NCBI RefSeq assembly: GCF_003334355.1
Contig: NZ_QOWP01000012.1
DNA: 64,000 nt
Source: Escherichia coli
GTDB lineage: Bacteria > Pseudomonadota > Gammaproteobacteria > Enterobacterales > Enterobacteriaceae
Reading direction: 5' to 3' (one strand)
In this document: one piece after another, positions 59,170 to 64,000 of the stretch
Position numbering within the stretch: the first letter of the stretch is position 1
How the letters are laid out: each line of letters begins with the position of its first letter
The notes under the pieces: model-generated
The model's database searches: none
What the model was told of the DNA's origin: nothing
The model's input: only the letters and a program-made list of their open reading frames with translations
Position numbers and translations under genes: made by a program

Positions 59170-60453
59170 GTGAACACATTTTCAGTTTCCCGTCTGGCGC
59201 TGGCATTGGCTTTTGGCGTGACGCTGACCGCCTGTAGCTCAACCCCGCCCGATCAACGTCCTTCTGATCAAACCGCGCCTGGTACCTCTTCTCGCCCGAT
59301 TCTGTCGGCAAAAGAAGCGCAGAATTTCGATGCTCAACACTATTTTGCATCCCTGACACCAGGTGCTGCAGCGTGGAATCCTTCCCCGATTACCCTGCCT
59401 GCGCAACCTGAATTTGTTGTCGGCCCGGCGGGCACTCAAGGTGTAACGCATACCACGATTCAGGCGGCGGTAGATGCGGCAATTATCAAGCGTACCAACA
59501 AGCGCCAATATATTGCCGTGATGCCTGGTGAGTATCAGGGAACGGTATATGTCCCTGCCGCTCCGGGTGGAATTACTCTGTACGGTACAGGTGAAAAACC
59601 GATTGATGTGAAGATTGGGCTTTCCCTTGATGGTGGCATGAGCCCTGCCGACTGGCGTCACGACGTCAACCCGCGCGGCAAATATATGCCAGGTAAACCA
59701 GCGTGGTATATGTACGATAGCTGCCAGAGCAAACGCAGCGACAGTATCGGTGTTCTCTGCTCTGCGGTCTTCTGGTCACAAAACAATGGCCTGCAACTGC
59801 AAAATCTGACCATCGAAAACACGCTGGGCGATATCGTAGATGCAGGTAACCATCCGGCGGTGGCACTGCGTACTGATGGTGACCAGGTACAGATTAACAA
59901 CGTTAACATTCTCGGTCGTCAGAACACCTTCTTTGTCACCAACAGCGGTGTGCAGAACCGTCTGGAAACGAATCGTCAGCCGCGTACGCTGGTGACCAAC
60001 AGCTACATTGAAGGGGATGTGGATATCGTTTCTGGTCGCGGCGCAGTGGTGTTCGATAACACCGAATTCCGCGTGGTGAACTCACGTACTCAGCAAGAAG
60101 CGTATGTGTTTGCACCGGCTACGCTGTCCAACATTTACTACGGTTTCCTCGCCGTAAACAGCCGTTTCAATGCTTTCGGTGATGGTGTGGCGCAACTGGG
60201 CCGCTCGCTGGATGTTGATGCCAATACCAACGGTCAGGTGGTGATCCGTGATAGCGCCATCAACGAAGGTTTTAACACGGCTAAACCGTGGGCCGATGCG
60301 GTGATCTCTAATCGTCCGTTTGCGGGTAATACCGGCAGCGTAGATGATAACGACGAAATACAGCGCAATCTGAATGACACTAACTACAACCGCATGTGGG
60401 AATACAATAACCGCGGCGTGGGTAGTAAAGTGGTTGCAGAGGCGAAGAAGTAA
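59170..60453 (+). CDS. ybhC: Outer membrane lipoprotein, pectinesterase-like
   Basis: 427 aa ORF with lipoprotein signal peptide and lipobox (LTAC). Confidence 0.85.
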   Translation: MNTFSVSRLALALAFGVTLTACSSTPPDQRPSDQTAPGTSSRPILSAKEAQNFDAQHYFASLTPGAAAWNPSPITLPAQPEFVVGPAGTQGVTHTTIQAAVDAAIIKRTNKRQYIAVMPGEYQGTVYVPAAPGGITLYGTGEKPIDVKIGLSLDGGMSPADWRHDVNPRGKYMPGKPAWYMYDSCQSKRSDSIGVLCSAVFWSQNNGLQLQNLTIENTLGDIVDAGNHPAVALRTDGDQVQINNVNILGRQNTFFVTNSGVQNRLETNRQPRTLVTNSYIEGDVDIVSGRGAVVFDNTEFRVVNSRTQQEAYVFAPATLSNIYYGFLAVNSRFNAFGDGVAQLGRSLDVDANTNGQVVIRDSAINEGFNTAKPWADAVISNRPFAGNTGSVDDNDEIQRNLNDTNYNRMWEYNNRGVGSKVVAEAKK

Positions 60454-60461
60454 GAGCAATT

Positions 60462-60686
<225 letters not shown>

Positions 60687-60690
<4 letters not shown>

Positions 60691-62948
60691 ATCTGACGGT
60701 TTTTATTGAAGTTAATCAAACTACCCGCCTTGATAATCTCGCGCTCTTCAGCAGTCAGACTTTCCATATAGAGCGTAATTTCCGTTACCGGCGCATCTTC
60801 ATGGATCACATAACCTTTAAACGTCGTACCCGGATTATCCAGCGCCGCTTTAATGCCAGGGATGTAAATGTAATCCCCCACTTCAAAGGTTGGCACTTCC
60901 GCCATCTGCAGCGGTAACATCCCCCAGTTGATGACGTTAGAACGGTAGCGTTTAGTCGCGTACTCTTCGGCAATATTCGCCAGACCGCCAATCACACGCT
61001 GGCAGCTCGCCGCCTGTTCACGCGCAGAACCATCGCCTGGTTTCACCGCATATACCATGCTGCCAATTTCAGTTTGCAGCGGATCAATATGCTCCTGACC
61101 AGCAATCTGCTTAATGCGCGCAAACACCTCTGTCAGCTCGCTGACATTCCCCGCCAGACGCTGATTTTCCAGCTCAGCAGTCGCTTTACTTCTGCCAACA
61201 TAACCGGGATCGCGGCGTGACAGGGTAAACTCCGCCGGACCAATCGGATTTGAACGATAAGAAGAGGTTTCACCGGAAGGAATCAGTTCGTCGGTGGTGG
61301 TCACTTCGTCGAGGATCTTCGAGCACACTTTCAGGACGATATTGTCAGTCAGCGCACCCAATTCCGGCCAGTCTTTAATGTTCGGTCCGTAAATCAGCGG
61401 TTGCTGAGTTGCCCCTTTCACAAAGCCCTGATAAACACGGTTTTTATACGGCGTTACATCGAAGGCGTACTCCGGCACGTTGTCCCAGCAATCAAGTTCG
61501 CTGGCAGAGGTTAAATAGCCACCGTTTGCCGCAGTCGCAGCGATAGAACGAGCGTCCATCAACGCCACCGCTGACATCTGCCCATTAGCTGGCTTAGAGC
61601 CTTCGCGGTTCGGGAAGTTGCGCGTGGTGTGGCGAATACTTAATCCGTTGTTGATTGGCGTATCGCCCGCGTCAAAGCATGGGCCGCAGAACGCGGTTCT
61701 GATGATTGCGCCTGCGCCAATCAAATCTGCTACCACACCTTTTTTGGCGAGATCCATAAACACCGGCTGTGATGACGGGTAAACTGCCAGCGAGAAGGTG
61801 TCATTGCCACAGGATTGACCGCGCAGTGCATTCGCCGCCGCGATGACGTTTTCGTAGTTACCGCCAGAACAGCCCGCGATAATCCCCTGCTGCACTTTCA
61901 GGCGACCATTTTCCACTTTATCCAGCAGCGAGAGTTTGGCTTTACCGTGCGCCACGCGTTCGGACTCAATTTCAATCTCACGCAGAATGTCGGTCAGGTT
62001 CTGGTTCAGTGTGTCGATTTCATACACGTTGCTCGGGTGGAACGGCAGCGCAATCATTGGTTTGATGGCGCTTAAATCAACGCTGATGCAGCCATCGTAG
62101 TACGCCATCGGTTGAGGGTTAAGCTGGCAGTAATCCTGGCCGCGACCGTGCAGCGCCAGCCAGTTATGGACTTCTTCATCGGTTTGCCAGACAGAACTTA
62201 AACAGGTCGTTTCAGTGGTCATAACGTCAACGCTGTTACGGAAATCGGTAGAGAGCGCAGCAACACCGGGACCTACGAATTCCATCACTTTGTTTTTGAC
62301 GTAGCCGTTTTTGAACACGGCACCGATGATAGCCAGCGCCACATCCTGCGGCCCCACATACGGCGCTGGTTTTCCGGTCAGATGCACCGCAACAACTCCC
62401 GGATAGTCGATATCCCAGGTGTCATTAAGCAGCTGTTTTACCAACTCACCGCCGCCCTCACCGACTGCCATTGTCCCTAATGCACCGTAACGGGTGTGGC
62501 TGTCTGACCCGAGGATCATTTTGCCGCCGCCTGCCATCATCTCACGCATATATTGATGGATGACCGCAATATGCGGAGGCACAAAAATACCGCCATAACG
62601 CTGAGCTGCCGATAAACCAAAAACATGGTCATCACCGTTAATGGTGCCGCCGACGGCGCAGAGTGAGTTATGGCAGTTGGTCAGCACATACGGCAGCGGG
62701 AAACGTTCCATTCCGGACGCTTTAGCGGTCTGTACAATACCAACAAAGGTAATATCGTGAGAGGCTAATGAATCAAACTTAATTTTAAGTTTATCCATAT
62801 TTCCGGACGTATTATGAGAAGAGAGAATAGACCAGGCAATAGTGCCTTTTTTGGCTTCTTCTTTTTTAATTTCGCCGGTGAAATGTTCTTCGGCAATTAT
62901 TTCGTTATTACTGGCGAGAAACACGCCTTTTTCAGATAACTTGATCAT
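60687..62948 (-). CDS. ybhJ: Aconitase-family protein
   Basis: Translation from [11 protein letters not shown] gives 753 aa with aconitase-like Cys-containing regions. Confidence 0.8.
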
Positions 62949-63002
62949 CAAATGCTCCAGATATCTGCGCACCGTGAAGTGCGCAGAAAGATAATAAATG
63001 GA

Positions 63003-63136
63003 TATACTCTAAATAATTCGAGTTGCAGGAAGGCGACAAGTGAGTGAATCCCCAGGAGCTTACATAAGTAAGTGACTGGGGTGAGCGAACGCAAACGCAG
63101 CACATGCAACTTGAAGTATGACGAGTATATTTACAG
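63003..63136. repeat. ERIC (enterobacterial repetitive intergenic consensus / IRU) element
   Basis: GTGAATCCCCAGGAGCTTACATAAGTAAGTGACTGGGGTGAGCG core matches the ERIC consensus as I recall it; lies between ybhJ and ybhI. Confidence 0.8.
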
Positions 63137-63842
63137 CATGTTCCAGCCGATCAGCATATTCCACCACCACACGCCGAGGGTGATATGCACCAGGAAGGTT
63201 AATATCGTCAGTACCGCACCGACCAACCACCAGGATTTAATATCGTTATAACCCACGCCAAAGATGACCGGACCTGCCGCGCCGCCATAGTGAGTAACCA
63301 TGCCGCCATAGGAGTTGGAGAACAACAGTGCCAGCGCGGTTAACATTAACGGTGCGCCGGAGACGTTCGCCAGCATGGCAAATACCGGTAACATAGCAAC
63401 GATATAGGCACTACCGGAAGCGAAGAAATAACGCACGATAATGCTGAGGAAAATAATAACGAAGAAAGCAACGTTACCGTGACCATCAAATGCCAGGTTA
63501 TTTTTAAAGACTTCAGCTAACCATTCGAAGAATTTAACTTTCGATAATAAGGAGCTTAAGCCGATAATACCGCCGTACCAGATTAAGGTATTCCAGCCGC
63601 CTTTATTTTTAACCACGTCTTCCCAGGTAACGATACCCAGCAGCAGCATGGTTGCCATAACAACGATTGCCACGGTGGATTCATCAACCCCCAGAGACTT
63701 ACTGAAAATCCAGCCCAGCAGCGCCAGCACAAAGACACCGAGCAGCATTTTTTCGCGGATTTTCATCGGTCCTAGTTCGGCAAGGCCCGCTTTAGCGATG
63801 GTTTTGTTATCCACCTTCTTAATTTCTGGTGGATACATGGTG
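63131..63842 (-). pseudogene. ybhI: 3' fragment (about 236 codons) of DASS-family anion transporter gene ybhI, interrupted by an insertion sequence
   Basis: Translation is the C-terminal half of a DASS (CitT-like) transporter; expected full length about 477 aa; upstream of 63842 the sequence switches to IS10-type DNA. Confidence 0.75.
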
Positions 63843-64000
63843 CTGAGAGATCCCCTCATAATTTCCCCAAAACGTAACCATGTGTGAATAGATTTTGAGT
63901 AAGCAGGGTTGCAGCCACGAGTGAGTCTTCCCTTGTTATTGTGTAGCCAGAATGCCGCAAAACTTCCATGCCTAAGCGAACTGTTGAGAGTACGTTTCGA
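63843..64000 (-). mobile_element. IS10-family (IS4 superfamily) insertion sequence, inside end and 3' part; continues beyond the window
   Basis: Terminus CTGAGAGATCCCCTCATAATTTCCCC matches the IS10 inside end as I recall it; adjacent minus-strand frame encodes the IS10-type transposase C-terminus. Confidence 0.8.
63856..64000 (-). CDS. IS10-type transposase, C-terminal 47 codons (5' part outside the window)
   Basis: Minus-strand translation RNVLSTVRLGMEVLRHSGYTITREDSLVAATLLTQNLFTHGYVLGKL-stop, near-identical to the IS10 transposase C-terminus as I recall it. Confidence 0.75.
   Translation of the reverse strand, partial: RNVLSTVRLGMEVLRHSGYTITREDSLVAATLLTQNLFTHGYVLGKL

Follow-up and report, generated by a model that had tools for sequence, protein, structure and literature searches.

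A full-length, strongly conserved ERIC element in the ybhI-ybhJ intercistronic spacer of Escherichia coli

The spacer between ybhI and ybhJ in Escherichia coli contains a copy of a known miniature inverted-repeat element, ERIC (IRU/RU-1). In the stretch of DNA analyzed here (64,000 nucleotides of contig NZ_QOWP01000012.1, RefSeq assembly GCF_003334355.1; hereafter, the window), it occupies positions 63003 to 63129 on the minus strand, is exactly 127 bp long, and runs from TATACTC to GAGTATA. We consider this identity, taken together with the evolutionary history reconstructed below, to be virtually certain. Our overall best explanation of the element is probably right as well, a judgment that applies mainly to its identity, context, and history.

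Results

Identity and boundaries of the element

The conserved 44-nt ERIC core, GTGAATCCCCAGGAGCTTACATAAGTAAGTGACTGGGGTGAGCG, is matched exactly at 63044 to 63087 on the plus strand. It occurs once in the window, with zero mismatches, and was not found in any of 100 dinucleotide-preserving shuffles of the window even with 3 mismatches permitted. Both ERIC-PCR primer sites lie inside it and match exactly, at 63044 to 63065 and 63066 to 63087. Aligned over its full length with the two reference sequences of Delihas 2007 (PMC2759123), the element matches the E. coli 127-nt consensus at 117/130 positions (90%, two 3-nt indels) and the Salmonella SeRU-1 copy at 117/127 (92%, ungapped). The original prediction had proposed alignment to the consensus, with 70 percent identity as the threshold for refutation; the 90 to 92% observed lies well above it.

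The palindrome that had been proposed, full length and of the ERIC/IRU type, is there, with its exact core and its inverted arms. A repeat finder placed the terminal arms at 63002 to 63027 and 63105 to 63130 (26 nt, 81% complementary) and the central arms at 63050 to 63063 and 63068 to 63081. On the window strand, 63003 to 63129 reads TATACTCTAAATAATTCGAGTTGCAGG...CAACTTGAAGTATGACGAGTATA. On the gene (minus) strand, and hence as mRNA, the element reads 5'-UAUACUCGUCAUAC...GAAUUAUUUAGAGUAUA-3', the usual Hulton/ERIC-PCR orientation being its reverse complement. By inverted-repeat detection and folding, the low-coordinate terminal arm (63003 to 63027) forms the mRNA 3' arm, with the AU-rich GAAUUAUUUAGAGUAUA in it, and the high-coordinate arm (63105 to 63129) is the mRNA 5' arm, beginning 1 nt past the ybhI stop codon. 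The ERIC folds with a minimum free energy of -38.2 kcal/mol as mRNA and -52.3 kcal/mol as the complementary strand; for folds of the 185-nt spacer, the z-scores against shuffles are -5.9 and -8.2, respectively. The TA dinucleotides at 63003 to 63004 and 63128 to 63129 are the first and second copies of the duplicated target, as judged from empty sites with a single TA in Escherichia lineage L005 and in E. coli GF4-3.

The copy therefore shows every feature of the ERIC/IRU family that we examined: a length of about 127 bp, the core, identity over the whole length, terminal repeats with a long imperfect hairpin, a terminal TA from target duplication, and membership in a dispersed, multicopy, intergenic set. 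Rfam holds no curated ERIC family. Its best match to the element was RF02818 V_AS5, which scored 46.4 bits where the gathering threshold is 96 and which matched across the full model (1 to 129), since this Vibrio RNA overlaps an ERIC-like repeat of that genus. Membership in RF02818 (Vibrio antisense RNA AS5) was rejected, the match being below threshold and on the strand opposite to the genes.

The spacer and the neighboring genes

Across 5,426 complete E. coli genomes, the region that matches is annotated as ybhI and ybhJ, both on the minus strand of the window; in K-12, ybhD is divergent from the ybhH-ybhI-ybhJ cluster. The ybhI stop codon, TAA at 63131 to 63133 on the minus strand (from sequence and annotation), is one base (63130) from the ERIC, so the claim that the element abuts this codon holds to within a 1-nt gap. 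The end originally proposed, 63136, was 7 nt too far: the ERIC ends at 63129, 63130 is a spacer base, and 63134 to 63136 is the last sense codon of ybhI. Nor does the element fill the whole intergenic space, as had been supposed. The spacer, 62949 to 63130, is 182 nt long, as it is in K-12, and the ERIC takes up 127 of these; 54 nt at 62949 to 63002 are non-ERIC.

That remainder adjoins the downstream gene, ybhJ (aconitase-family hydratase, 753 amino acids; 60687 to 62948, minus strand), whose ATG is at 62948 and whose Shine-Dalgarno sequence, GGAG at 62955 to 62958 on the minus strand, is invariant in 16 aligned taxa. Just upstream of this ribosome-binding site, the repeat finder detected a separate, perfect GC-rich hairpin of 9 to 10 bp, CUGCGCAC-N6-GUGCGCAG (62964 to 62987, minus strand), which is not part of the ERIC. 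It is kept in all Escherichia, including those with no ERIC, with changes confined to the loop, and C. youngae, C. koseri, and others have a hairpin of different sequence at the equivalent position. The ybhI-ybhJ spacer is therefore composite, joining an ERIC that was acquired to an older segment that holds the conserved hairpin and the ribosome-binding site. Downstream of ybhJ, at 60441 to 60684, the window also holds real REP-like elements.

A scan of 62700 to 63400, blind to long imperfect hairpins, detected neither a sigma-70-like promoter nor an intrinsic terminator in the spacer. Because none was detected, it seems most likely that the ERIC lies within a ybhI-ybhJ cotranscript. The original prediction had assigned it to the 3' untranslated region of ybhI; with ybhI and ybhJ co-oriented, it is better called intercistronic.

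In the strain analyzed, ybhI is present as a 3' fragment (63131 to 63829, minus strand), identified from the annotation of matching E. coli records as an anion permease or putative tricarboxylate transporter. About 700 bp upstream of the ERIC, it is interrupted by the end of an IS4-family, IS10-like (ISVsa5) element (63830 to 64000, minus strand), assigned to its family by sequence match. The transposase presumably has the same orientation as ybhI and ybhJ, to judge from the IS10 inside-end sequence. The junction between the IS and ybhI was found in none of the complete E. coli genomes of the collection. Since ybhI is cut by the IS, transcription from the native ybhH promoter may stop short of the ERIC in this strain.

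Occurrence at the locus and the empty site

Presence of the element at this locus in other E. coli, a check suggested with the original prediction, was confirmed. When presence is scored as a match to at least 80% of a 701-bp query centered on the ERIC, at least 5,325 of the 5,426 complete E. coli genomes have it (at least 98%). K-12 is among them, the MG1655 copy lying at 803322 to 803448. A 66-nt probe spanning the ERIC-less junction found that junction in only one complete E. coli genome, GF4-3. Beyond these, a cross-species scan with peptide patterns, using one genome per species, returned 50 ybhI loci. The ERIC was present in E. albertii, in E. whittamii, and in E. coli E69, which belongs to a divergent lineage and differs from K-12 by about 5% in genes of the ybhI/ybhJ region. 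Loci with no ERIC came from the divergent Escherichia lineages L005 and L006, nine Citrobacter, Edwardsiella, and Intestinirhabdus, and also from Klebsiella, where ybhJ is not next to ybhI. For Salmonella and E. fergusonii, this one-genome-per-species scan returned no ybhI locus, either because the locus is missing or because the patterns missed it.

With the ERIC in place, the site reads TAA-A-TA[ERIC]TA-TCC; in both L005 and E. coli GF4-3, which lack it, the sequence is TAA-A-TA-TCC. The natural empty-site allele as found in GF4-3 is TAAATATCC. A single TA at the empty site is what a TA-duplicating miniature element predicts, and the ERIC inserted at a TA dinucleotide 1 nt past the ybhI stop codon. 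L006 and Citrobacter have about 10 extra bases at the insertion point, which looks like an older state. GF4-3 combines ordinary E. coli flanks with a spacer identical to that of L005, so its ERIC-less state is best explained by a short recombination patch. From these comparisons, the insertion is old and essentially fixed in E. coli. The presence or absence of the ERIC, with clean empty sites, is compatible with MITE-type mobilization in trans.

Conservation between and within species

We compared the ERIC and 1.77 kb of coding flanks across four lineages: K-12, E69, E. whittamii, and E. albertii. Four of the 127 ERIC positions vary (3.1%), against 131 of 272 four-fold degenerate sites in the flanks (48%; Fisher p=1e-22) and 235 of 1767 coding sites overall (13.3%; p=3e-4). 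The 54-nt remainder of the spacer varies at 3 positions. Between K-12 and E. albertii, a single ERIC position of 127 differs and 94 of 280 four-fold sites do; E69 and E. albertii do not differ at all in the ERIC. Around the conserved block of E. albertii, divergence is back to normal at 19 nt on the upstream side and at about 50 nt on the downstream side. Conservation extends to every position of the element, loops and mismatches included, which exceeds the needs of a simple hairpin role.

Within E. coli, we compared the K-12 reference with four genomes chosen among the more divergent spacer alleles (SaT040, RM13516, PapM-36-2, and SRCC 1675). Across these five, 7 of the 127 ERIC positions vary, versus 18.5% of four-fold sites (p=4e-4). 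Three of the seven result from one event, AGCTCC>AGTGAC, which turns the central stem into a perfect 14-bp palindrome and looks like a templated quasi-palindrome mutation; its carriers are E. whittamii, a B2 strain, and an O145 strain.

The allele in the window differs from the commonest allele, which is shared across species, by two derived substitutions, at 63041 and 63094. They weaken an internal helix, taking the predicted fold from -43.2 to -38.2 kcal/mol. We rejected the reading of the pair as a compensatory T-A to C-G swap, since folding shows that the two positions are not partners; they therefore offer no covariation evidence for an RNA hairpin.

Other ERIC copies and their orientation

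ERICs are few in E. coli, as had been stated at the outset: complete genomes have a median of 13 blastn-detectable copies (range, 3 to 21), and 19 to 21 are catalogued in K-12 (PMC2267715). The ybhI-ybhJ copy, being carried by K-12 MG1655, should be among those catalogued. Metagenome contigs scanned with the ERIC core yielded about 60 different sites of insertion. At six or more loci, and at yeiS-preT, there are ERICs matching the ybhI-ybhJ copy at 124 or more of 127 positions. The yeiS-preT copy, which is missing from many E. coli genomes, is 125/127 (98.4%) identical and has the opposite orientation relative to transcription. At a second ERIC locus compared between two lineages, the flanks are 88.9% identical over 1,499 bp, and the ERICs match at 126 of 127 positions.

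We also surveyed orientation at the metagenome loci, measuring how far each ERIC, with boundaries good to about 2 nt, lies from the stop codon that ends an upstream open frame, with 120 codons as the minimum frame length. In the orientation of the ybhI copy, 8 of 30 ERICs lie within 1 nt of the upstream stop or overlap it; in the opposite orientation, 0 of 36 do (Fisher p=0.001), and those near stops are 3 to 10 nt away. Its stop-adjacent position and this survey together place the ybhI copy in the stop-abutting class of ERICs. The stop-adjacent ERICs of Yersinia are said, in the 2005 work of De Gregorio and colleagues, to share one orientation. To judge from our own survey, that of the ybhI-ybhJ copy presumably corresponds to their "B" orientation. 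A preference at insertion, or avoidance of open reading frame extension, could account for the bias in place of regulation.

Discussion

All of the family features that we examined are present and K-12 MG1655 carries the same copy, so the ybhI-ybhJ ERIC is a known element in a known place and, in that sense, ordinary. It is like the catalogued family (1991; Wilson and Sharp 2006) in length, exact core, 90 to 92% identity, terminal repeats, TA ends with a single-TA empty site, intergenic position, and a number of about 10 to 20 copies per E. coli genome. There is no difference of substance, only the substitutions at 63041 and 63094 that mark the allele in the window. Its fixation, its empty sites, the strength of constraint, and its orientation class refine the picture and do not amount to anything new in kind. 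High conservation of ERICs between species reportedly featured in the original family description by Hulton and colleagues in 1991.

What keeps the element so similar between species? Conversion between paralogs alone cannot keep orthologues identical across species, which leaves purifying selection or recent recombinational spread. We favor purifying selection as the probable cause, because divergence in E. albertii resumes close by and because a second, unrelated locus behaves alike. Part of the identity could still come from recombinational spread and not from constraint, given the near-identical paralogs and the spacer replacement in GF4-3.

One can envision a role in mRNA stability modeled on Yersinia. 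In three secondary accounts (PMC2229807, PMC3184786, PMC10969869), Yersinia ERICs are described as cotranscribed with their neighbors; an ERIC that follows a gene lowers the level of the upstream transcript, in one orientation only, because ribosomes block the hairpin, thus exposing an RNase E site in the 3' inverted repeat. The ybhI-ybhJ copy resembles the stop-proximal, "B-oriented" ERICs of Yersinia enterocolitica (De Gregorio et al. 2005, J Bacteriol 187:7945) in abutting the upstream stop codon, in being placed between co-oriented genes, in having the stop-abutting orientation, and in having an AU-rich 3' arm on the mRNA. It differs in belonging to another genus and another ERIC subfamily, and the transcript effect and the RNase E cut are known from Yersinia genes.

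By analogy, the ERIC would be cotranscribed with ybhI and ybhJ and would fold into a long imperfect hairpin in the mRNA. The 5' arm, UAUACUCGUCAUAC, which starts 1 nt past the UAA, would be covered by a ribosome terminating on ybhI, and covering it would free the AU-rich 3' arm. We imagine that RNase E would then cut within this arm and the AU-rich spacer behind it. The candidate entry site, found by direct reading, is a 32-nt AU-rich stretch of the mRNA, GAAUUAUUUAGAGUAUAUCCAUUUAUUAUCUUU (62988 to 63019, minus strand), that runs from the ERIC 3' arm into the spacer; its suggested role follows the model as given in the same accounts (PMC2229807, PMC3184786, PMC10969869). Such a cut would leave ybhH-ybhI with an unprotected 3' end and lower its level relative to that of ybhJ, the 5' side of which would be capped after the cut by the separate GC-rich hairpin. 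We infer every step here from cotranscription onward, and that ribosome-dependent destabilization by RNase E operates at ybhI-ybhJ is a tentative proposal, to which we give somewhat less than an even chance. Because ybhI is broken by the IS, the translation-dependent step could not work as in the wild type in the strain analyzed. A tiling-array paper on RNase E and RNase III has nothing on ERIC.

The proposed effect is reminiscent of the REP/BIME elements that act as intercistronic stabilizers, for example between malE and malF; these too are repeated palindromes that set upstream and downstream mRNA levels apart. REP/BIME elements, however, are an unrelated sequence family, are 35 to 40 bp long, and act as barriers to 3' exonucleases.

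Alternatively, the ERIC may be a functionless selfish relic, passively transcribed, its low divergence reflecting recombinational spread, homogenization with near-identical paralogs, or both. GF4-3, with its E. coli flanks and a spacer identical to that of a divergent lineage, demonstrates that short-patch replacement of exactly this spacer occurs, and copies at least 97.6% identical exist at six or more other loci. All seven variable ERIC sites are found within E. coli, the three more distant lineages adding none, and the AGCTCC>AGTGAC change is common to E. whittamii and two unrelated E. coli lineages. A relic is nevertheless unlikely, in our view. The identical tract in E. albertii is bounded by divergence on both sides at the distances given above, so the transfers would need to have been nearly spacer sized, and in three lineages. 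Paralog conversion does not slow divergence between species, and the second, unrelated ERIC locus shows an equal contrast between flanks and element. The association with stop codon and orientation would also be unexpected for neutral junk, barring an insertion bias.

Constraint of another kind is conceivable, in which E. coli-type ERICs are recognized sequence specifically in trans, either by a protein or by complementary transcripts of opposite-orientation ERICs, such as that in the preT leader. This reading is prompted by the finding of 0 to 1 change per 127 nt where four-fold sites differ by about one-third, which is more than a generic mRNA hairpin would need; we consider it improbable.

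Could the ERIC instead act by terminating transcription? Its hairpin, followed by the U-rich spacer sequence AUCCAUUUAUUAUCUUU, might serve as a partial terminator or attenuator after ybhI, leaving ybhJ expressed below ybhH and ybhI. The mRNA-strand hairpin is strong (-38 to -43 kcal/mol), the sequence behind it is U rich, and ChIP-exo and RNA-Seq data list ybhH and ybhI, and not ybhJ, as targets of YbhD and Nac (PMC9068703). However, the base of the hairpin is AU rich (UAUACUC/GAGUAUA), and the run of U residues is broken. In the spacer, the terminator scan came up empty, though that scan is blind to long imperfect hairpins. Moreover, the opposite orientation is the more stable one (-52 kcal/mol), yet stop-abutting ERICs do not have that orientation. 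On balance, attenuation by the ERIC seems quite improbable.

We think it very unlikely that the ERIC is a trans-acting RNA partner, with transcripts of opposite-orientation ERICs forming duplexes that RNase III would cleave, coupling unrelated operons. The ERIC in the preT leader is complementary at 125 of 127 positions to the ybhI-ybhJ ERIC on the mRNA, and a need for intermolecular complementarity would explain why the whole element, loops included, is conserved. Yet intramolecular hairpins would compete strongly, no experimental support was found in the literature consulted, and the yeiS-preT copy is missing from so many E. coli that any coupling must be dispensable.

Finally, a small protein encoded on the mRNA strand, whether by the 42 stop-free codons or by a 57-amino-acid ATG open reading frame (63105 to 62932), can be set aside as extremely improbable: the frame is open across the ERIC, and Delihas 2007 noted a 42-amino-acid ERIC frame and gene fusions in other species (PMC2759123), but the ATG at 63105 lacks a Shine-Dalgarno sequence and sits within the hairpin arm, a second of the three frames is open too, as composition predicts, conservation is uniform with third codon positions not relaxed, and other loci carry this sequence in either orientation. 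We accordingly rejected the small open reading frames in the ERIC as coding, finding neither a ribosome-binding site nor a codon-like pattern of substitution.

For annotation, the gain is an ERIC label for a spacer that RefSeq leaves blank. E. coli ERICs are usually treated as landmarks for PCR typing. The ybhI-ybhJ copy has diverged far less across Escherichia species than the adjacent genes, as has the ERIC at one or more other loci. If E. coli-type ERICs were in fact recognized in trans, the dozen or so copies in a genome would make up a small posttranscriptional network and would not be independent relics. Because ERIC-less alleles exist in nature, as in GF4-3, ybhI-ybhJ is a convenient natural test case for the tuning of neighboring genes by ERICs.

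The ybhI-ybhJ spacer carries its ERIC almost without exception: among complete E. coli genomes, the only spacer lacking the element was that of GF4-3 (NZ_CP053258.1; locus L060, positions 900-990). Its flanks are those of an ordinary E. coli, and the spacer itself matches without a difference the one in L005, a divergent Escherichia lineage that has no ERIC at this locus. Having E. coli flanks around a spacer identical to that of L005 points to a short recombination patch, rather than to excision, as the probable origin of the GF4-3 sequence.

The spacer also contains a perfect, GC-rich hairpin of 9-10 bp on the minus strand (window 62964-62987), directly 5′ of the ybhJ Shine-Dalgarno sequence. 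This hairpin is kept in all Escherichia, including those without the ERIC, and changes are confined to its loop. Citrobacter youngae, C. koseri, and others have a hairpin of different sequence at the same spot, suggesting that it is an older structured part of the spacer, separate from the ERIC. Past the other end of ybhJ lie three clustered REP-like palindromes (window 60441-60684) matching the Rfam family naRNA4 (RF02564), one of which reaches the gathering score (60.7 bits versus 59.5).

Within the ERIC, a three-base change at an allelic site (63056-63058), AGCTCC to AGTGAC, turns the central stem into a perfect 14-bp palindrome. The allele is carried by E. whittamii, the B2 strain SaT040, and an O145:H28 strain (L020, L054, and L055). 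It looks either like a templated (quasi-palindrome) mutation that has arisen more than once or like a polymorphism shared among these lineages.

A paralogous ERIC, 98.4% identical to the ybhI-ybhJ copy, is found between yeiS and preT (L061, 1501-1627; L062 to L071, 2741-3058), where it lies 149 nt past the yeiS stop codon and faces the other way with respect to transcription. Some contigs carry it and others with an identical encoded YeiS lack it, and the two spacer haplotypes, with and without the ERIC, are quite diverged in the rest of their sequence. In the metagenome contig OKVW01000499.1 (L115), the ERIC next to the ybhI stop codon is followed on the right side by the flank of another ERIC locus, that of L090 and L117. 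Either the assembly has produced a chimera across the repeat, or recombination between two ERIC copies has rearranged the sequence.

In the window, ybhI is interrupted by an IS4-family, IS10-like (ISVsa5) element (63830-64000), which lies upstream of the ERIC by about 700 bp. A search of 5,426 complete E. coli genomes found the exact IS-ybhI junction in none of them; a single further genome, MB53, carries an IS of this kind inside ybhI, apparently at a different position. Annotations also record a frameshift in ybhI of EPEC E2348/69 (L057) and in ybhJ of SCU-125 (L059). Together, the two frameshifts and the window insertion suggest that the gene cluster is frequently inactivated in E. coli.
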